DNA of 15,590 nt from Bacteriovoracia bacterium (lineage in GTDB: Bacteria > Bdellovibrionota > Bacteriovoracia > Bacteriovoracales > Bacteriovoracaceae), in contig JBKHVI010000058.1 of the NCBI GenBank assembly GCA_046570105.1, positions 1 to 15,590 on the forward strand, given 5' to 3'. Both the position numbers and the translations under genes were made by a program. This document shows, in pieces, positions 5,863 to 15,590 of the stretch. Positions within the stretch are counted from its first letter, which is position 1, and the number at the start of each line of letters is the position of its first letter. The notes under the pieces are model-generated. The model was not told where the DNA came from. It did not search any database and saw only the letters and a list, made by a program, of their open reading frames with translations.

Positions 5863-7146
5863 ATGAGCTATCAAATTCAAAGCCTTAACGGCTGCACCAA
5901 AAAATTTGTCTTTAACTATGAGCAAGTTGATCTCACTAAGCAGATCCAAGCTGCTTTGGTTGATAAGCAACGTAATGCCAATCTAAAAGGTTTCCGCAAA
6001 GGAAAAGCACCACTTGATATGGTGAAGAAACTTTTCGGTCCACAAGTTGAAAACGACGCGCTTACTCGTTTTGTTTCTGAAGAGTTCTACGCAGCTCTTA
6101 AGAAAGAAAATATCCGCGCTGTTGGTTACCCATCATTTGGTAACACTCAGTATGAAGCTGGTAAGAAAGTAGCATTTGAAGCCACTGTAGAAATCATTCC
6201 AGAATTCGAACTTAAAGACTTCAGCAAATATTCTTTCAAAAAAGAAGACGACAAAGTTACGGCTGCAGATATCGAAGCTGTAAAAAAGCAATTGCTTACT
6301 TCTAAAGCAGAACTCAAAGAAGTAACTGATCCTGCTGCCACTTTGAAGAAAGGCCAGCACGCTGTGCTTAACTTTGAAGGCGAGCGCAAAGACGGTTCTA
6401 AGCCAGACAACATGAAGGCGACTGATTACATGCTTGAAATCGGCTCGAATCAGTTCATTGCTGGTTTCGAAGAAGGTATGACTGGTATGAAGAAAGGCGA
6501 AACGAAAGTTATCGCTTTGAATTTCCCTGCCGATTACCATGAGACAGAACTTCAAGGTGAACCAGTAAAGTTCAAAGTTGATCTTCTTGAAATTAAAGAT
6601 CGCCAGTTCCCAGAGCTTAACGATGAACTCGCTAAAGAGTTCGGCTACGAGTCTGTCGCTGATCTCGACAAGAAGAATACAGATCGTTTAACTGTTCAAA
6701 AGAAGCGTGAGGCTCAAGCGAAACTTCACCAACAGATCCTTGAGAAATTGATCGAAGAAAATAAATTCGACGTTCCACAAGCTTTGATTGAAGACCAGAA
6801 GCAAAGCGTGAAGCAGGATCTTTCTCGTACTTTGAAGCAACAAGGCTTCAACGATCAAATGATTGAGATGTACTTTGAACGTTGGACTGCTGACGTAAAC
6901 CAAAAAGCAGAATTCCAAGTTCGCTCAGGTTTGATCCTAGATAAGCTTGCAAAGAATTTTAATATCGAAGCGACTGAAAGTGATTTGGATGTGAAGCTTG
7001 ATGAAATGGTGGCTCAGTCAGGTATGAAGCGCGATGATATCGCTCACTTCTACAAGTCGAACGCTAATGTTAAGCGCAATCTTATGTACGCAATCCGTGA
7101 AGAAAAGACCTTCGATAAACTTATCTCATCAATGAAAGTTTCTTAA
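5863..7146 (+). CDS. tig: Trigger factor (ribosome-associated chaperone/PPIase)
   Basis: GFRKGKAP ribosome-binding motif, FKBP domain (IGSNQFIAGFEEGMTGMK, FPADYH) and C-terminal domain. Start likely ATG 5863 with GAGG at 5850-5853. Confidence 0.97.
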   Translation: MSYQIQSLNGCTKKFVFNYEQVDLTKQIQAALVDKQRNANLKGFRKGKAPLDMVKKLFGPQVENDALTRFVSEEFYAALKKENIRAVGYPSFGNTQYEAGKKVAFEATVEIIPEFELKDFSKYSFKKEDDKVTAADIEAVKKQLLTSKAELKEVTDPAATLKKGQHAVLNFEGERKDGSKPDNMKATDYMLEIGSNQFIAGFEEGMTGMKKGETKVIALNFPADYHETELQGEPVKFKVDLLEIKDRQFPELNDELAKEFGYESVADLDKKNTDRLTVQKKREAQAKLHQQILEKLIEENKFDVPQALIEDQKQSVKQDLSRTLKQQGFNDQMIEMYFERWTADVNQKAEFQVRSGLILDKLAKNFNIEATESDLDVKLDEMVAQSGMKRDDIAHFYKSNANVKRNLMYAIREEKTFDKLISSMKVS

Positions 7147-8194
7147 GTTTTTTGCCGCCTCTCTTTGAGGGGCGGCATTTTACTTCCCAGCGCGCTTCCA
7201 TCCAAATTTGTCGACACTTCCATTCTCCCGAAATAATCACACTATTCATAACTCTGGCTTCCTTTGGTGGCGCAAACTCCCACATGCTCTGTGACGGAGA
7301 TTTTGTCTGAAAGCGATTAAGTGGGTCACTTAGTAAAATGAGCAGCACAGGAATGACCGATATGCGGTTTCTCCCTTTGGTTAAAATCCACCCCAGAAAA
7401 AGCAGCAGATGCCCGGCATGGGGTTTTATCGCCGGGATGTACAAATGCCATCCATCCACCCACATGACAAATTGATGAAGCTGTTCGAGTAGCATGACGA
7501 GCTTCTGTTGCAATACTTCTATTGGAAAAGGAGACAATACGAGAGCGGCCGGGAATAAAATCAAAAGCGGTATTCCCACTAAAAAATTGATCAATGGTGC
7601 AAAGAGTGAAAAAGGTTTGAGTAGCACCCAACATAAGGTCATCTGCGCTAATACGAACCACAGAAACCTTCTCTCTTTAGGAGCAAACCAACTTAAACCT
7701 AAGAAAAGCCAGCTGCATGTCCAACTCAAGGCATGTCCATTCCAAGAGAGAAGCGCACCTTCGAGAAACATGACGATACTAAAACTTTTAAAACTAAACA
7801 GTGATTTGGGTATCGCTTTAGCAAAGCTCACTCGTGCTAAGGCCCCCAGACCATTAATCCAGCTCATACTTAAGCCTAGGAGAAACATCATAAAAGCGGT
7901 GGCGGGAATGAGGCGCCAGAGTGGGTTGAGCGTTGCCAAATGAACCCCTGAAGGCGTGAAGAGGTGCCCTAGGCCTAACTGATAGTAGGTTTGTTTCTCT
8001 TTGCGACTAAAACCCCTATCGTCTCCCACAACAATAGCTCGCCATAAGAGGGCCCCTTTTTCATTTGTCTGAGGAATCCCTCTGAGCATGCTTTTATAGG
8101 CAGGTTTAGGTGTATATCTGAACGGCTTGGCCCCAGAGAACCAAGCGAAGAAACACAGGGAGCTTAAAAGAATAATAAGTGCGTTTTTACTCAT
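7121..8194 (-). CDS. ComEC/Rec2-family membrane protein (Competence domain only; no recognisable C-terminal metallo-beta-lactamase domain)
   Basis: AIVVGDDRGFS...GLGHLFTPSGVHL matches the ComEC 'ALLLGD...GxxHLxAISGLH' motif. Multiple TM segments follow. Confidence 0.78.
   Translation of the reverse strand: MSKNALIILLSSLCFFAWFSGAKPFRYTPKPAYKSMLRGIPQTNEKGALLWRAIVVGDDRGFSRKEKQTYYQLGLGHLFTPSGVHLATLNPLWRLIPATAFMMFLLGLSMSWINGLGALARVSFAKAIPKSLFSFKSFSIVMFLEGALLSWNGHALSWTCSWLFLGLSWFAPKERRFLWFVLAQMTLCWVLLKPFSLFAPLINFLVGIPLLILFPAALVLSPFPIEVLQQKLVMLLEQLHQFVMWVDGWHLYIPAIKPHAGHLLLFLGWILTKGRNRISVIPVLLILLSDPLNRFQTKSPSQSMWEFAPPKEARVMNSVIISGEWKCRQIWMEARWEVKCRPSKRGGKKLKKLSLMR
7153..7181 (+). terminator. Intrinsic terminator of tig
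   Basis: 11-bp stem TGCCGCCTCTC / GAGGGGCGGCA (one G-U pair) with a TTT loop, followed by TTTT, just after the tig stop. Confidence 0.8.
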
Positions 8195-8319: not shown

Positions 8320-9162
8320 ATGCGAAACGCACTCAAGGCAGAGATAGAGGCCTGGTTAAAAGAAGATGGAGTAGGCGACGTTGCTATTTACTGGCAGCGC
8401 TTACCCAATTTCCCATCGCGCGCGCAAATCAAAATCAAATCAGATATCACGCTGGCGGGACTCCCTTGGTTCATTGCTGTTTTTGAAACACTTGATAAAA
8501 ATCTCCAAGGTCTTGAATCTCTCATGGAATATGAAGGCCAGCATTTGCGTGCAGGCACAGTCATCGATCTACCTGTTGACCTTCCATGGGGGGTGGCGAT
8601 AACCGGTGAGCGCTTGGCACTTAATCTGTTACACAAGGCCACCGCAGTAGCCACTGCTACAAAAAAACTGACTGAGACAACAAGCAAACATGGTGTTGCG
8701 GTTCTAGATACACGTAAGACCACTCCGGGACTTCGCAATCTAGAAAAATATGCTGTCACAGTTGGTGGCGGAAAGAATCATCGCTTCACGCAAGTCGATG
8801 CTTGGATGATTAAAGACAATCATAAAGAACTCATGGGGCTGAAAGGCGCTGTAGATTTTTTCCGTAGCATGCAACAGCCCTACAAGAATCTTATTGTTGA
8901 GATTCATTCACTTGATGAACTCAAAGCCGCTCGTGAATTAAATGTGACTCATTTCCTGTTGGATAACTTTACTCCAGAAATGCTCAAGAGCGCTTGTTCC
9001 TCTAAGGTGTCTGGCGAGTTCTTTGAAGTTTCTGGCGGTGTGAATCTTCAAACAGTTTCGCAATATATGATTCCTGGCGTGGATGCTGTTAGCAGCGGCG
9101 CTATTACTCAGTTCCCGGCAGCGGTTGATATCTCTTTTAAGTTTCAAGCGGTGAAGTCATGA
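8320..9162 (+). CDS. nadC: Nicotinate-nucleotide pyrophosphorylase (quinolinate phosphoribosyltransferase)
   Basis: ERLALNLL, LDTRKTTPGLRNLEKYAVTVGGGKNHR, IKDNH, LLDNF and EVSGGV. GAGG RBS. Confidence 0.96.
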   Translation: MRNALKAEIEAWLKEDGVGDVAIYWQRLPNFPSRAQIKIKSDITLAGLPWFIAVFETLDKNLQGLESLMEYEGQHLRAGTVIDLPVDLPWGVAITGERLALNLLHKATAVATATKKLTETTSKHGVAVLDTRKTTPGLRNLEKYAVTVGGGKNHRFTQVDAWMIKDNHKELMGLKGAVDFFRSMQQPYKNLIVEIHSLDELKAARELNVTHFLLDNFTPEMLKSACSSKVSGEFFEVSGGVNLQTVSQYMIPGVDAVSSGAITQFPAAVDISFKFQAVKS

Positions 9163-10733
9163 GTGATCAGACTACAGATGTCCTCATTATGGGGACTGGC
9201 ATTGCAGGACTTACAACTGCAATGAAGTTAGCTGAGAAAGGTATCAAGGTTACGATTGTAACTCGTGAAACGCGTCCAGAAGTAACGAATACACTTTGGG
9301 CCCAAGGTGGCATCATTTTTAGTGGTGACGAAACCGTCGAACAAGAAGACCTCGTTAAAGATATTATGAAGGCCAGCGCTGGCACTTCGTATTTGCCAGC
9401 AGCAGAGCTTCTCGCCAAACGTTCCGGCGATATCGTTCAAGAAATTCTCATTGATAAAGTTCACACTCCATTTGCTCATGGTGATAACGGAGAACTTCTC
9501 TACACCAGAGAAGCCGCTCACTCGCGTGATCGTATTATCTATAACGGTGATATGACTGGCAGAGCGATTCAAGTGGCGATGATGAAGCACTTGGATGATC
9601 CGAAGCGTTTTCCTACTATTGAATTTTTAACAGCTCACACTGCGATTGATTTGATCACTCCTACTCACCACGGTGTGGATATCCGCCAACGTTATGAAGA
9701 AGACAAAGTTGTCGGCGCTTATTTATGGGATCAAAAAGGGCAGATCGTTCGCAAGGTCATGGCGAAATATACTGTCCTTGCGACCGGTGGAATTGGTGCG
9801 CTTTATTTGCACAACTCAAATTCTGAAGGTGCGCGCGGAGACGGCCATGCCATGGCCCGTCGAGCGGGAGCTTTTGTCACAAACATGTAGTTTGTGCAAT
9901 TCCATCCGACAACTTTCTATGACCGCGCTTCTCATCGGCGCTTTCTGATCTCGGAAGCTCTTCGTGGAGAAGGTGGTCGCTTGATTAATGCTTCAGGCGA
10001 AGCCTTTATGTCTCGCTATCATCCGGATGCTGAACTTGCTCCTCGTGATATCGTCTCTCGCGCCATTGTTGATCAGATGATCTCTAGTAAAGCCGAGTGC
10101 GTTTTCCTGGATATTAGTCACAAGCCAACTGATTGGCTCAAGCAGCGCTTCCCAACGATCTATGCTCATTGTCTTGAAAACGGCATCGATATTACCAAGA
10201 CCCCGATTCCAGTTGTACCTGCGGCTCACTATACCTGTGGTGGAGTAAAGACAGACCTCTTGGGTCGTACGAATTTGTCACGACTTTACGCTGTCGGAGA
10301 AGTGGCGTGTACTGGCCTTCATGGTGCTAATCGTTTGGCTTCAACCTCACTCCTAGAAGGAGTGACTTGGGGATATGTGGCCGCCGAAGATATTCTTTCT
10401 CGTATTGCCGACACTCCAACTTATGATGCAAAACTTGTTAAAGAGTGGGAGCTTGGAAAAGAAGAAGTGGATCTCTCATTAGTGAACCAAGACCAGATGA
10501 CATTGAAGCAGAGTATGTGGAACTACGTGGGAATTATTCGTTCAAGAAATCGTCTCGCTCGCGCTCGCGCTATGTTCCGCGAACTACAAGACGAGGTCGG
10601 CAAGTTCTATAAAAATGCAGCTCTTCACGACAGTTTAATTGGTTTACGCAATGGAATTGAGGTGGCCCACATGGTGGTGGACGCATCTCATAGAAATCGT
10701 GAATCTATGGGTTGTTTTTATCTTAGAGACTAA
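9159..10733 (+). pseudogene. nadB: L-aspartate oxidase interrupted by a single in-frame TAG (9888-9890); nonsense allele or sequencing error
   Basis: ORFs 9159-9890 and 9894-10733 are in one frame. Motifs: GTGIAGL (FAD), WAQGG, EAAHSRDRI, LATGG, NM*FVQFHPT, LISEALRGEG, ELAPRDIVSRA, AAHYTCGG, GLHGANRLASTSLLEG. 524 codons in total; ATGA overlap with nadC. Confidence 0.9.
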
Positions 10734-11173
10734 AAGCTACATTCGAAGTTGTAAGTGCTCATGTCTTTTTTTGGAAGATCAGCTGGATACTCAGCCTTAT
10801 CTTTGCGAGCATTCGAAATAAATAGTACACCTTTAAAAGCACGAGTCTCGATAACCTGGCGTGGGTTACGATCTAAGTGCATCCAGGCCTGGATAAAGCG
10901 ATTGTTCTTTTGCTTCGAGATAAATCTCAAATGGGCTTGGCGATCAGCGGCCAGAGTCTCACGGGTGAAGACAATGGGTTTGCCACTGGTTTCAATTCTT
11001 AAGGCCAAGAAATTCGATAATGAGAAGTGACTTACGTACGATATAGCGTCAATGGCGCGAACTTGTTCGGCATCATTGGGGTAGAACCCTGGTGCTCCTT
11101 GGCGGCAACGAATGACCGTTTCGGCCCACGCCGTCCCCCAGAGAAGACCCACTATTAGTAATAAAGTACGCAT
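10730..11173 (-). CDS. Hypothetical secreted protein (147 aa)
   Basis: ATG 11173 gives the signal peptide MRTLLLIVGLLWGTAWA-ET. One Cys near each end of the mature chain (VIRC...FECSF). Stop overlaps the nadB stop. Confidence 0.7.
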   Translation of the reverse strand: MRTLLLIVGLLWGTAWAETVIRCRQGAPGFYPNDAEQVRAIDAISYVSHFSLSNFLALRIETSGKPIVFTRETLAADRQAHLRFISKQKNNRFIQAWMHLDRNPRQVIETRAFKGVLFISNARKDKAEYPADLPKKDMSTYNFECSF

Positions 11174-11291
11174 ATAGGCGCAGTATAAGGGCCAAACCCC
11201 TTCAGGGAGTACCAAATTTATAATAAAAAAGCCCTGCGAGAAACGCTATCAAGCAGCCAAAAATTCCATCTGGGCCAAAGTTCATAAGAAA

Positions 11292-11858
11292 ATGCCTCAA
11301 TGGGCGAAAAAGTTTTACCGTATTTGGGATAACCTATCAGACTCTCAAGCCGAGGCCCTGAAGCTTGAATGGTTTTATGAAGATGACGAGAAGCCCACTC
11401 AAGAAGAAAGCGCTAAGCGCCTCGGAATAAGTATCGCTTCTTATCAAGAACGCTTGGAATGGGCCTATAAGAAGCTTGAAATCCTTTACCCTGAGTTCAC
11501 TACACGTAAGCGCAAGAATCCGACCGTAACAAAAATGGCTCAACCTCCGGAACCACTATATGAAATCCTCACGTGTGGTGATAAAGTTCAAATCCAGCAC
11601 CCTGTGAGACAAAATAAAATTCTAACTACCCGGCAGCGCCAGAAAATAATGAAGTGGGTCCACGAATCTACGGCAAACTATTTATTCCGTTACGATCATT
11701 ATACTGATTTTAATGATTTAGAAGATGAAAACGAGCTGGAAGCCTTTGAAGAGGCTATTGAACAAGAACATCAGGATCTTTTGGACTTAAAAGCAGAAGA
11801 ATCCGGGCCCGCCCTACTCCGTCTCGATAAAATTTTAAGCCAAACAAACGATACCTAA
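11292..11858 (+). CDS. Sigma70 region-4-like helix-turn-helix protein with acidic C-terminus, possibly 5'-truncated
   Basis: LSDSQAEALKL...PTQEESAKRLGISIASYQERLEWAYKKL fits the sigma70_r4 pattern (L++xxRExxxL...TxxEIAxxLGISxxTVxxRLxRAxxKL). The frame stays open upstream to 11178. Confidence 0.65.
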   Translation: MPQWAKKFYRIWDNLSDSQAEALKLEWFYEDDEKPTQEESAKRLGISIASYQERLEWAYKKLEILYPEFTTRKRKNPTVTKMAQPPEPLYEILTCGDKVQIQHPVRQNKILTTRQRQKIMKWVHESTANYLFRYDHYTDFNDLEDENELEAFEEAIEQEHQDLLDLKAEESGPALLRLDKILSQTNDT

Positions 11859-11868
11859 TGATTCCCTC

Positions 11869-13665
11869 TTAGGCTGCCAGCTTTAAAGGACTTGAAGAAG
11901 CAGCTTTTTTGAACTCTTCTCGAATCTCGCTTCCCCAAATGACTTGATGAAAGCGTGCCATCGTATCAAAGCTTAACTTGTTCAGCACTTTTCTTCCGTT
12001 TATTACCCTTGCTCTTTTGATGTCAGGAAGGCCAGAGCAAACCTCTTGTGAAAACTCTTCTGAGAGCATCGGGATTAATGAACAAAGCTCATCAACGCTA
12101 AGCTCTTTAAAAAACTCCATTGCTGATGGTTTGCTCTGCTCAAAAAGCTGAGAAAGCGTAAATCTGTGGTCTAATCCACGACTCAGTATAAACTCATCAA
12201 ATTGAGTTTGATTGAGGTATTTCAAGGTGGAAGTAATACGATTATCAGCATCTTCTTCAAAGCGTCTTCGCAGCTCATTCACTTTTTTGTCAAACTTAAT
12301 GAGAGAAGAATGTTCAAATTCAACATGATCCAACTTGCTTATGCTATCAGGCTGTATGAATCCATTGTTTATTAAGGAAGCCATCCTTATTGAATCCATA
12401 CAATCCATTGTAATGGCTTTTTCAGTTTCGTTAAAATCATCGAAGCAGACTCCCAGGGCTTGAAGGGGTATACTATTTAAAGATGCGCGGATACTATTCA
12501 TGAAATATACATTCGGATAGAGCATCAAAGACATCAGCTGCTGATAAATATGTTTGTGATCCTCGGGAGTACTCTCAAGATAGAGGTTACTGGAGAGAAA
12601 TCTAGAGTAGTACTGAAAATTTTTGCTCTTCGTCATGCTTGTATTTTCAAGGTAGGTTTTATCACCTAGAATCTGGCTTAAGCACCAAATATCCTTAAAC
12701 TTCCGCTTATCCATGGCGTCCATAAAGAAACTCGTGATTACCTCTCCATGGTTATGATGAATTTCAATGATCTTATCTTTGGGATCACTAAGGCCCGCAC
12801 CAGTGGTCTTCAATTCGTCCTGCAATTCACTGTTCAAAACATTATGAGAATCATCAAAATGAGAGGATGAAGAGATTTGGTTATTGGCATTCGATAAAGC
12901 TGATAACGTTCTATTTATTGAGTTCAGGGCCTTAATCGAGAAGAAAAAGCACAATCCCAGGAAGCTTAGGAGAATCAGAAGAGTTACCCCTAAGCCGACT
13001 TTCAGAGGGGAGAGAATTTTTTCACTTAAGAAATCTTGGAGAGAAAGGGCAGCCTCCCGGAAGCTTTTGGCAAATGATTCTGGTTCAAAACGGATCTTTT
13101 TTCCCTCGTCAAGACTTTCAGAATTTAACGCTTTCGCTTTTCTGTGATTGAACTCAACAGTGAGCCCGATTTTCAGAGGACTCATTTTATCTTCAATGAG
13201 GGATCTAATCAGACGCTCAATTTTCTTATCAAGCTTGGTCTTATGATACAGTACAATTTGTACACTTTCCGTGTGAGTAAGGATTAAGCTCGGCTCAACT
13301 GTGAACTTAGAGCCGTCGATTACCAGAACTGATTCATCTTCTGGTGTTTTTACCATTACACCATCATGAGAAATATTGAGCCCCGGTAAATCGTCAAATT
13401 TCTGGCGAGTATTTCTCTTCGCTTGAGGAGAATTCTTGTCAAATTCTTTTCTAAGTGAAAAGTGATCAACGTTGAGGTGAAGAGAAACCCATAAGTTTTC
13501 CACCCCCATAAATTGTGAAATTTGAGATTCTAAATTCCGGGACAATTGACTCTCAAGCTCGTAAACAGAGGATCGGATATATCCATCAGCATTGTCTGAA
13601 GCAGAGGCAGGCAGTAAGGCTAAAGTCAAAATAACCATCAGCATTAGCTTTATCTTAGTTTTCAT
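11869..13665 (-). CDS. 598-aa membrane protein: signal peptide, FliF-like ring-building periplasmic domain, one TM helix, FliG-middle/C-like cytoplasmic region (putative FliF-FliG-like fusion)
   Basis: ATG 13665 follows AGGA and overlaps the motB-like stop. Signal peptide ends LALLPASA-S; TM VGLGVTLLILLSFLGLCFFFSI; C-terminal FTLSQLFEQ...FFKELSVDELCSLIPMLSEEFSQEVCSGLP resembles FliG_C. The CDS is well supported; the domain call is by eye. Confidence 0.62.
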   Translation of the reverse strand: MKTKIKLMLMVILTLALLPASASDNADGYIRSSVYELESQLSRNLESQISQFMGVENLWVSLHLNVDHFSLRKEFDKNSPQAKRNTRQKFDDLPGLNISHDGVMVKTPEDESVLVIDGSKFTVEPSLILTHTESVQIVLYHKTKLDKKIERLIRSLIEDKMSPLKIGLTVEFNHRKAKALNSESLDEGKKIRFEPESFAKSFREAALSLQDFLSEKILSPLKVGLGVTLLILLSFLGLCFFFSIKALNSINRTLSALSNANNQISSSSHFDDSHNVLNSELQDELKTTGAGLSDPKDKIIEIHHNHGEVITSFFMDAMDKRKFKDIWCLSQILGDKTYLENTSMTKSKNFQYYSRFLSSNLYLESTPEDHKHIYQQLMSLMLYPNVYFMNSIRASLNSIPLQALGVCFDDFNETEKAITMDCMDSIRMASLINNGFIQPDSISKLDHVEFEHSSLIKFDKKVNELRRRFEEDADNRITSTLKYLNQTQFDEFILSRGLDHRFTLSQLFEQSKPSAMEFFKELSVDELCSLIPMLSEEFSQEVCSGLPDIKRARVINGRKVLNKLSFDTMARFHQVIWGSEIREEFKKAASSSPLKLAA

Positions 13666-14239
13666 TTTCCGTTTCCTGATAATTTCTAGTGATAAGTATT
13701 CTGATTTCATCTAAAACTTCTTCATCTGTCCCGCCAGCGGGCTTTCTTTCAAAGCTCCCTACGCTCATATATTCTTTTTTTAGGCCCAGTCCATGCAGAT
13801 ATTCTCTCACGGCCAGTGCTTGCTCAAAAGTATGTTCCGGACCCAAAGCAATTTGGAACATAATATTGGGCATATGGCGATATGTAATGTCTGCAATGTT
13901 GGCCAGGTGGTATTTCCCCTCTAGAGTAATCTGCGATTCGGCAAAGAGGTTCGGCTTTCTAATCTTAATCAAAATATGCTGATGAAGTCTCTCCAGGTCA
14001 TAGCTTTGTCTTAGTGTGGTAGATTCCATGCTCTTACCAATATTCTTAAGAACTTCATCTTGCTTATCAGCAGTGAGTGTTTCTTTAAAAACTTTCTCTT
14101 GTTGACGTGCTTTAATAACAAAGAAAAGAATAAAAAAACATAAAAGCACTGTCACAAGATCAGAGTATGAAATCAGCCAGTCTTCTCCCCTTTCGGGTCG
14201 CTTCATTTCAAAGTCAAAAGATTGATCGTTGTCCTTCAT
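13655..14239 (-). CDS. MotB/PomB-like stator B subunit with shortened, degenerate OmpA-like domain
   Basis: WLISYSDLVTVLLCFFILFF is the MotB TM motif with the ion-binding Asp (D27). ATGA overlap with the motA-like gene. Only 194 aa. Confidence 0.88.
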   Translation of the reverse strand: MKDNDQSFDFEMKRPERGEDWLISYSDLVTVLLCFFILFFVIKARQQEKVFKETLTADKQDEVLKNIGKSMESTTLRQSYDLERLHQHILIKIRKPNLFAESQITLEGKYHLANIADITYRHMPNIMFQIALGPEHTFEQALAVREYLHGLGLKKEYMSVGSFERKPAGGTDEEVLDEIRILITRNYQETENEN

Positions 14240-15009
14240 GCAGCCTCGGTTCTTTTAACTTCCTCATCAAGTGAAGGATGCCCAAGGAATTCACGAATGA
14301 GGACCGGATCATTCTTATCAGCGGCAATCATTAAGAAGGTATCTACAATCTTCTTTTTTAATACCAATTCAAGTTGAGACTTATTTACAAGTATTTCTGA
14401 CATTGGTACTAAGATATAGTTTGCCATAAGTAGACCGTAAAGAGTTGTCACCAGGGCCATTGCCATTTTTATGCCAATAGCTTCCATTCCGGTGGACAGG
14501 CTCATCTGTTCAAGAAGCCCTATTAAGCCCAAAATTGTTCCGATCATTCCAAAAGCTGGGGGGTACTTGGCAATTGATCGAACGAGATCGGAGTTTTTAC
14601 TCATTCGTGTTTTATACGATTGCATGTCTTCATACATAATGCGCTTGATATTCTCAGCGCCAATTTCATTCTGAAGGAGTCGCAATCCTTTTTGAATGAA
14701 TAAGTTATCAGAGGAATGTTCAAGCATACTAATCTTCCGGACAGAAGAGGCTTTCTGCGAGATGACGAGTAGCTCTTGAAGAACCTCATCCTCATCATTT
14801 GCGGATTTGAAGAAAACCTCAGTAAGTGAGATGACAAGCTCTTTAAGATTTTTCCAGGTAATCGACATCAAAGCAGCTGCCAAAGTTCCGCCTGCGACTA
14901 AAACGAAGCTGAAAAGATCCAGATAAAGGCGTGAATTCTCCGAAACACCGGTTAGGGCCTGAATCAGAATAGCTGTGCCAAGTAAAAAGCCTAAGATTAC
15001 TGTGATCAT
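14236..15009 (-). CDS. MotA/PomA/MotP-like stator A subunit
   Basis: SFVLVAGGTLAAALMS, FIQKGLRLL, PPAFGMIGTILGLI and MAMALVTTLYGLLMANYILVP. AGGAGG RBS at 15020-15025. Confidence 0.93.
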   Translation of the reverse strand: MITVILGFLLGTAILIQALTGVSENSRLYLDLFSFVLVAGGTLAAALMSITWKNLKELVISLTEVFFKSANDEDEVLQELLVISQKASSVRKISMLEHSSDNLFIQKGLRLLQNEIGAENIKRIMYEDMQSYKTRMSKNSDLVRSIAKYPPAFGMIGTILGLIGLLEQMSLSTGMEAIGIKMAMALVTTLYGLLMANYILVPMSEILVNKSQLELVLKKKIVDTFLMIAADKNDPVLIREFLGHPSLDEEVKRTEAA

Positions 15010-15076: not shown

Positions 15077-15427
15077 TTAAGGATTCTGAATAGCCCGACT
15101 CACTTGATCAACAATGGCTTGAAGACGTTGCTTTTTTTGTTCTGCTGTATCCAGCTTCACTTCAGCAGAAGCTAACTCTTTTTCAAGAGCAGAGAGTTCT
15201 TTCTCTAAATCAAGTTTTTCCTTTGTAACTTCTGCGAGAGTTTTCTTTAAATCATCTATAGAATTCTGAAGCTTTTTATTTTCTAACTCTAGAGCCAGCT
15301 TCTCTTTTGTAAGCGTAATCACCTGCTCCTTACTCTTATCTTGGCCAATTCTAGAGGTATCAATTCTGCTTTCCTGAGCGTAAGAATTCCCGAGTAATAA
15401 GATCAAAAAGGCAGCAAGATAATTCAT
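15077..15427 (-). CDS. Hypothetical secreted coiled-coil protein (116 aa)
   Basis: Signal peptide MNYLAAFLILLLGNSYA-QE followed by a continuous Leu heptad pattern (LTKEKLA LELENKK LQNSIDD LKKTLAE VTKEKLD LEKELSA LEKELAS). Confidence 0.8.
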   Translation of the reverse strand: MNYLAAFLILLLGNSYAQESRIDTSRIGQDKSKEQVITLTKEKLALELENKKLQNSIDDLKKTLAEVTKEKLDLEKELSALEKELASAEVKLDTAEQKKQRLQAIVDQVSRAIQNP

Positions 15428-15507: not shown

Positions 15508-15590
15508 ATGAAATACTTTTTTCTACTCTTTACATTAATCAGTTGCGCCACCGGCTCTAAAATCTCCCTACAGTCCGAGCCGGACAAAGC
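15508..15590 (+). CDS. N-terminus of a putative lipoprotein (3'-truncated by window edge; not in the ORF track)
   Basis: MKYFFLLFTLISCATGSKISLQSEPDK: basic N-region, hydrophobic stretch and lipobox LIS-C. Confidence 0.65.
   Translation, partial: MKYFFLLFTLISCATGSKISLQSEPDK

Follow-up and report, generated by a model that had tools for sequence, protein, structure and literature searches.

A putative rotor–stator module with a one-piece FliF-RBM3/FliG-like protein in Bdellovibrionota

The flagellar motor is powered by ions, whose flow makes MotA rotate around MotB, with FliG taking up the torque. FliG-coupled MotAB stators have, to our knowledge, been taken to serve flagella only. Here we analyse a 15,590-nucleotide (nt) stretch of DNA from a Bacteriovoracia bacterium (the window), which is the entire contig JBKHVI010000058.1 (C58) of the source genome, assembly GCA_046570105.1 (3.0 Mb, 88% complete). 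Its minus strand carries a motA-like gene, a motB-like gene and a third gene, whose product is predicted to join a FliF-like ring-building motif (RBM) to a FliG-like half in a single polypeptide. We propose that this triad is the core of a rotor–stator machine that probably works independently of the flagellum.

Several known systems come close to it. ExbBD-TonB, TolQR-TolA, AglRQS-Glt and ZorAB likewise encode an A/B ion-motor pair together with envelope proteins dedicated to it, but their A subunits are non-flagellar, their partners are TonB-type or cytosolic, and they have no FliG ring. In Bacteroidota, the type IX secretion system and gliding machinery combines the GldLM motor, the GldKN ring and the SprB adhesin; as an ion motor moving a ring and large surface adhesins it could be a functional analogue, although the module proteins that we scanned match no Gld or Por family and its parts are flagellar homologues. 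A natural FliF-FliG fusion outside the flagellum occurs in Chlamydia: in the available text of PMC4768692 it has about 330 amino acids (aa), two membrane helices, RBM2, no SpoIIIAG-like RBM3 and FliG-M only, and no stator is named. The protein in the window, by contrast, has RBM3, one helix and a FliG N-M-C span, with a stator encoded next to it. Artificial Salmonella FliF-FliG fusions, cited in the same text, still assemble and rotate. The available part of a survey of stator classes, the FIT class included, mentions FliG once and FliF not at all (PMC12505986). We found no description of the module in the literature searched, where most subscription papers fell outside coverage, and it is apparently undescribed.

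All three genes lie on the minus strand: motA (P0001) at 14236-15009 for 257 aa, motB (P0002) at 13655-14239 for 194 aa and the fusion, or "rotor", gene (P0003) at 11869-13665 for 598 aa. motA and motB overlap by 4 nt (14236-14239), motB and the fusion gene by 11 nt (13655-13665), and AGGAGG can be read about 10 nt ahead of the motA ATG. For the fusion we favour the ATG at 13665 over an alternative upstream one at 13710 (613 aa), since the orthologue in a relative, genome G404, has 596 aa. Promoter and terminator scans did no better than chance (11 vs 9.9 and 4 vs 3.6). No flagellar or chemotaxis family was found among the other scanned open reading frames (ORFs) of the window, which are housekeeping or without family. 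A first-pass annotation had claimed the overlapping genes behind a strong ribosome-binding site, the MotA- and MotB-like identity of the first two products, the FliF/FliG-like character of the third and the absence of flagellar and che genes from the window; all of this held up. Two outcomes that would have refuted its reading did not come about: the third product does resemble FliF and FliG in structure, and in the relatives surveyed the fusion homologues stay linked to motAB.

According to its structure model and profiles, P0003 places a FliF-type RBM3 domain in the periplasm and a FliG-like half in the cytoplasm, with one membrane helix between them. Hydropathy peaks only at residues 5-23 and 223-241: the former looks, by inspection, like a signal peptide, and the latter is the single membrane helix. 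A split RBM resembling FliF RBM3 and SpoIIIAG covers residues 23-180 (13126-13599, minus strand); it starts directly after the N-terminal hydrophobic stretch, with no match of P0003 to PF01514 (YscJ_FliF, RBM1-RBM2), and its insert bears an L-P-G motif conserved in the fusion family. Beyond a linker, residues ~319-582 (11920-12711, minus strand) form the FliG-like N, M and C region.

It takes deep profiles and a structure model to bring out this likeness: P0003 has no Pfam match above cut-off, the best being MgtE_N (E 0.013). An Atlas feature search returned clusters of 480-720 aa, some members of which carry FliG_C, FliG_M or YscJ_FliF_C. Among 17 long genes found close to motAB in further genomes of this phylum, ten match FliG_C or FliG_M at E <0.001 (one of the 17 was later discarded as unrelated). 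Fifteen of the 17 align with 12 close relatives of P0003 over 505 columns (profile probability 99.1%, E 1.7e-18), and the same 15 proteins align with canonical FliG over 284 columns (98.5%). In hhalign, the C-terminal half of a 79-row fusion alignment meets canonical FliG over 263 columns (98.75%, E 1.4e-16), and its N-terminal part meets the FliF C-terminal (RBM3) alignment (92%, E 6.7e-7).

The structure model of P0003 (mean pLDDT 83.3, pTM 0.47) was compared with 48,161 chains; a single-sequence fold was set aside (pLDDT 36.9). The top two matches are FliF RBM3 chains, 8z5v_A (Z 9.6, rmsd 3.1, 100 aligned) and 6scn_A (Z 9.4). FliG chains rank 6, 7 and 35: 8umd_B meets residues 322-582 with Z 8.3 (rmsd 18.6, 213 aligned) and the C-domain chain 1qc7_B gives Z 6.2 (rmsd 3.4, 79 aligned). 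These Z values are modest, the next unrelated row, an OsmC fold, standing at Z 8.5. Four copies of residues 22-186 are predicted to pack side by side (0.53 against 0.00 for the best control), the runs having at least 63% of contacts in common and pLDDT of at least 63; 20 of 30 solved pairs attain the score mark, as does 1 of 23 single chains. The pass may be due to resemblance to FliF rings of known structure.

The stator proteins are easier to recognise. P0001 matches Pfam MotA_ExbB (E 5.8e-25), and among NCBIfam models it scores with MotP (E 4e-36), PomA (1e-32) and TolQ (7e-7), all under curated cut-offs; by sequence it is nearer to MotA/PomA than to ExbB/TolQ and of the flagellar type. It falls within a distinct subfamily, a clade of 92 "PPAFG" MotAs (support 0.996) separate from 10 canonical MotAs. 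At the columns of the PomA ion site it retains P151, G154, M155, T158, T188 and T189. The three threonines fall on the columns of PomA T158/T185/T186, the reference ion-site threonines in the available text of PMC10374538, and because of this match the window module probably conducts Na+; across the family, the second threonine is kept in only 34 of 95 module MotAs. P0002 matches MotB_plug (E 5.2e-11), the conserved Asp being Asp27, and consists of one membrane helix with this residue, a short plug/linker and an OmpA-like domain: it has no Pfam OmpA match, and aligns to the module MotB profile over 159 columns (98.9%). Two other loci of the source genome hold genes of these types, a MotA/ExbB-type gene with a membrane partner (C9:67324-68928) and a MotB/OmpA-like ORF matching the module MotB profile (C64:8975-9739). 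Zorya or another defence system was rejected: there was no ZorA, ZorC, ZorD or ZorE match, and only weak ZorB matches for MotB, with none for MotA or the fusion.

The fusion profile finds a single long gene in the source genome, P0003 itself, and it matches 16 of 236 other genomes of the family and none of the 10 same-genus genomes. We took 15 close loci from 14 of the 16. The order motA-motB-fusion recurs in 14 of these loci, the fifteenth being cut by a contig start; a lipoprotein gene accompanies 11, a barrel gene 12 and an adjacent ORF of at least 850 aa 11. An independent scan of GTDB with a MotA pattern gave at least 119 rows, 80 of them with flanks, and the matches listed are nearly all from Bdellovibrionota. 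Among these listed matches, a fusion of at least 450 aa lies within 7 kb in 61 of the 80 PPAFG-motA loci (33 of the 38 whose flanks are complete), while 48 have a gene for a PEGA-type lipoprotein and 45 a barrel gene; the profiles used in the locus scan derive in part from these very loci, a first round gave 59 fusion ORFs, and a few loci duplicate earlier ones. Trees of MotA and of the fusion, compared over 73 pairs, are broadly congruent, with 24 of 38 well-supported MotA splits in common, a Spearman coefficient of 0.55 and the same nearest neighbour in 41 pairs. Word-indexed protein searches yielded one relative only, and a metagenome scan with the close-relative alignment no confirmed locus.

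Two variants were seen among the relatives. One subfamily (L156, L166, L185, L186 and others) has longer fusions of 750-830 aa, with a gene for a cyclic-nucleotide (cNMP)-binding protein between fusion and motA (16 of the 80 loci among the matches listed) and a zinc-ribbon gene after motB; cyclic-nucleotide control is possible there. In L137, L153 and L158, PPAFG motAB stand back to back with genes for a 511-521-aa LED-repeat protein and a 355-aa protein (weak fusion-profile and MgtE_N matches), and a relative of the LED-repeat protein is encoded in the source genome at C4:40286-41698.

The unit is larger than 11869-15009. Upstream of motA, at 15077-15427 on the minus strand, lies the gene of a 116-aa exported coiled-coil protein, for which Pfam gives only coiled-coil-type matches, all below cut-off. 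Its position is that found in the orthologous operon of G404 (L271), which reads: a 1,096-aa RCC1-repeat protein, a barrel, a divergent PEGA/TPR lipoprotein, a 130-aa coiled-coil gene, motA, motB and fusion. The motor proteins of the two operons are 48%, 42% and 41% identical, and the 116-aa and 130-aa proteins 40% over 121 aa (pairwise E 3e-23). On the plus strand, 15508-15590 holds the opening 27 codons of a divergently oriented lipoprotein gene, cut at the contig end, with a lipobox Cys after a signal peptide. Over all six frames of the genome this is the top match (E 0.001) of the PEGA N-terminal profile, it occupies the divergent position seen in L271, and it is most likely the start of the module's PEGA/TPR lipoprotein. 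Contigs of other sequencing runs continue beyond 15,590, X2 by 671 and X3 by 2,562 letters. The large neighbours differ by locus: RCC1, fn3, LamG, Ig, NHL and FG-GAP repeats occur in those scanned, and their N-termini look lipobox-like by inspection. A reading of the window as a bare triad was rejected, as the contig ends inside a partner gene; the window copy is a divergent, contig-cut member of a conserved module. The first-pass interpretation is supported in part; its minimal, self-contained three-gene unit is not, given the 116-aa gene, the lipoprotein start, and the barrel and giant lipoproteins that relatives usually have.

How does the module stand to the flagellum? With the flagellar motor core it shares a flagellar-type MotA with PomA ion-site residues, the MotB Asp, a split RBM3 and a FliG-like region. 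It differs in that its FliF part consists of a signal peptide, RBM3 and a single membrane helix and is fused to FliG; in having no export gate, rod, hook, filament or FliM/N genes; in its torque charges; and in its partners, a TPR lipoprotein, a barrel and giant lipoproteins. On their defining features the module is neither FliF, nor FliG, nor a flagellum, and it would work like a flagellar motor core. The source genome has its canonical genes on other contigs, fliF and fliG on C1, fliM/N-type genes on C33 and motAB on C6. We selected five genomes with weak FliG_C scores for a check of flagellar genes. One, G106, carries flagellins; the other four (G046, G187, G071 and G055, 89-94% complete) gave no FlhA, flagellin, FliF or FliM/N match, and each has adjacent motA, motB and fusion genes. 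Although the assemblies are incomplete, four families missing from four genomes are hard to put down to gaps. When 21 ORFs of the source genome's flagellar region served as queries against the 80 loci among the matches listed, only sigma-54-type activators and the fusions matched. The MotAs of G071 and G055 lie outside the PPAFG clade. Module MotAs do not all form one clade, L060, L302 and L303 standing apart from PPAFG, and support at the deep nodes is weak (0.68), so we make no claim about whether module or flagellum came first. Taken together, it is quite likely that the module is a dedicated non-flagellar rotor–stator pair. Short stand-alone FliG_C proteins, in frames of 108-279 aa, are also encoded in the source genome away from flagellar genes (C15:47550-47987, C19:4380-4817, C14:7466-8281 and C74:167-445), and such matches are frequent across the phylum.

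The same genes could instead encode a spare flagellar stator, MotAB joining the ordinary flagellar motor in some conditions and the fusion serving as store, chaperone or regulator. The source genome is flagellated, its module MotA is of flagellar type, and a published precedent exists in Bdellovibrio bacteriovorus. A published primer for Bd3021 (motA2; PMC11323537 supplement) matches, with no mismatch, the motA of the B. bacteriovorus locus L136, whose cluster includes motB, lipoprotein and barrel genes and ends in a 578-aa fusion: motAB2 (Bd3021/Bd3020) belongs to the same kind of module, of another subfamily and gene order than the window. A second published primer (Bd0144) matched none of the motA genes compared, and motAB1 is thus not placed. 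The available texts of PMC11323537 and PMC13689555 treat all three pairs, motAB2 included, as flagellar stators and make no mention there of a fusion or partners, and the latter, a 2026 review, would have the three B. bacteriovorus motAB pairs power one propeller type. We nevertheless hold the spare stator to be rather improbable. Modules occur in the four genomes without flagellar matches, and canonical torque charges appear not to be conserved among module MotAs. In a two-hybrid test, FliL-Bd1076 bound MotB3 and not MotA2 or MotB2 (available text of PMC11323537), and motAB3 is present in all strains examined whereas motAB1 and motAB2 are patchy (available text of PMC11870529). Finally, none of the 10 same-genus genomes has a fusion homologue.

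The published assignment of motAB2 is the first of a series of points that weigh against a flagellum-independent rotary machine. Compared with FliG directly, the 12 closest fusions align weakly (4.9%, E 0.008): the link to FliG emerges with the 79-row alignment, in which the remoter members resemble FliG more closely. Foldseek gave no match at E 0.001, though FliG and FliF chains top its list. The torque charges of FliG (R and E/D-D; R281, D288/D289 type), invariant in 30 of 30 canonical proteins, are absent from the 16-row subfamily of the window; P0003 has I549, N556 and G557 at these columns. The subfamily conserves K550 (12 of 16) and R553 (15 of 16) instead, while acidic residues near the D288/D289 columns persist in most of the other 63 fusion rows. 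On the stator side, charges of the PomA R88/E96 type are off the canonical columns in the MotAs of the window and G404, where the alignment is gappy and R91, K92 and E97 lie nearby. The G-H-x-D peptidoglycan-binding motif of MotB, which anchors a stator and is present in 66 of 77 module MotBs, is lost in P0002 and in the G404 MotB. The congruence of the trees is inflated by shared ancestry; an ORF of at least 850 aa occurs in only 22 of the 80 PPAFG-motA loci among the matches listed; no barrel or giant lipoprotein was found in the 88%-complete source assembly; and L272, from a genome that also has a complete second module, consists of the triad alone. Rotation and output are, moreover, read across from the flagellar motor and from gene context. 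A private, co-evolved rotor–stator interface would explain the altered charges and MotB motif; loss of torque transfer would do so likewise.

These losses of torque charges and MotB anchor in the window subfamily also suit an energiser or sensor without a freely spinning ring, in which MotA would turn around MotB and pull or gate the FliG domains, in the manner of Ton, Tol or Agl, opening an envelope channel or reporting surface load. Two further features are consistent with it: the insert at the beta-collar position is short and of low confidence in the model, so that no rod-holding collar is evident, and one subfamily has the cNMP-binding gene in its cluster, at 16 of the 80 loci listed. Such a device is unlikely in our estimate, as the full-length FliG-like region and the oligomerising RBM are kept across the family, needlessly for a one-to-one energiser, and most module MotBs have the peptidoglycan motif.

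The module arrived on an inserted block, because the window departs from same-genus genomes at about 11,200 and the gene at the block's edge has a mobile-type relative. The left boundary falls at 11199-11240 (no strand): identity to the same-genus genome G459 ends at ~11,199, where G459 proceeds into the conserved next gene, and contigs of X1, X2 and X3 branch at 11,205-11,237. Nine of the 10 listed same-genus genomes run from nadB, with or without a small 147-aa gene, straight into one conserved gene, which from its motif we take to be RimO-like. The edge gene (11292-11858, plus strand; 188 aa, HTH-like, weak Sigma70_r4/HTH matches) is not part of the motor, and C13 carries a 72% DNA match to it in the vicinity of TraG/VirD4, Replic_Relax and integrase genes. 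No tRNA was found at the insertion site.

A copy drifting on a mobile block may be inactive or decaying in the source genome, with the family perhaps functional elsewhere. The insertion, absent from same-genus genomes, the altered MotB and charges and the partner genes missing from the source assembly would all fit. We regard this as very unlikely: all four complete ORFs are intact, the ion-site residues are retained, near-identical DNA occurs in the sequencing runs of a second study, and the G404 orthologues have the same MotB changes at 41-48% identity, which indicates a conserved variant.

Around the insertion, some further features may be recorded. The C13 match of the edge gene belongs to the remnant of an integrative element at 47500-53656 (L317), which has genes for DUF6166, a TraG/VirD4 coupling protein, Replic_Relax and a phage integrase. 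nadB (9159-10733) is split by a single TAG (9888-9890) into ORFs of 243 and 279 aa, same-genus copies being one ORF of ~524 aa; this is either a pseudogene or a base error. The minus strand encodes a 357-aa membrane protein without Pfam or NCBIfam family at 7121-8194, and at 10730-11215 a 161-aa exported protein (~147 aa from ATG), also without a family in either database and kept beside nadB in several same-genus genomes.

We return to the flagellum-independent machine and propose how it could operate. Folds, topology, a tendency to self-associate, gene linkage and independence from flagellar genes are its computed part. Many copies of the fusion would polymerise through the RBM into a ring in the inner membrane, with the FliG domains below. 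MotA5B2 units would conduct ions, probably Na+, past MotB Asp27, and the turning MotA pentamer would drive the fusion ring, which CheY would not switch because there is no FliM/FliN partner. From gene context, the PEGA/TPR lipoprotein and the small outer-membrane barrel could couple this work to the outer membrane, and the output might be export, display or movement of giant adhesin-like lipoproteins for surface or prey contact. Adhesin handling is a tentative assignment, somewhat short of even odds. Equally tentative is the fuller picture of a distinct and widespread rotary machine, an RBM3/FliG ring spun by private stators that exports or drives giant adhesins without a flagellum or type III export gate.

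Were a single-polypeptide rotor and its private stator retained where flagellar genes are missing, this would demonstrate that rotor and stator can function by themselves. The module would then be a simple system for reconstituting torque generation and would bear on the origin of rotor and stator, as a living model of a lone motor core, whether this core resembles an ancestor or is the flagellar motor put to new use. If the proposal is true, part of the predators' "extra flagellar stators", including B. bacteriovorus motAB2, would not be flagellar; this laboratory predator carries such a module, and the published flagellar role of motAB2 would need re-examination. The link to variable giant surface lipoproteins, finally, points to a possible new route of adhesin export or surface movement in these predators.

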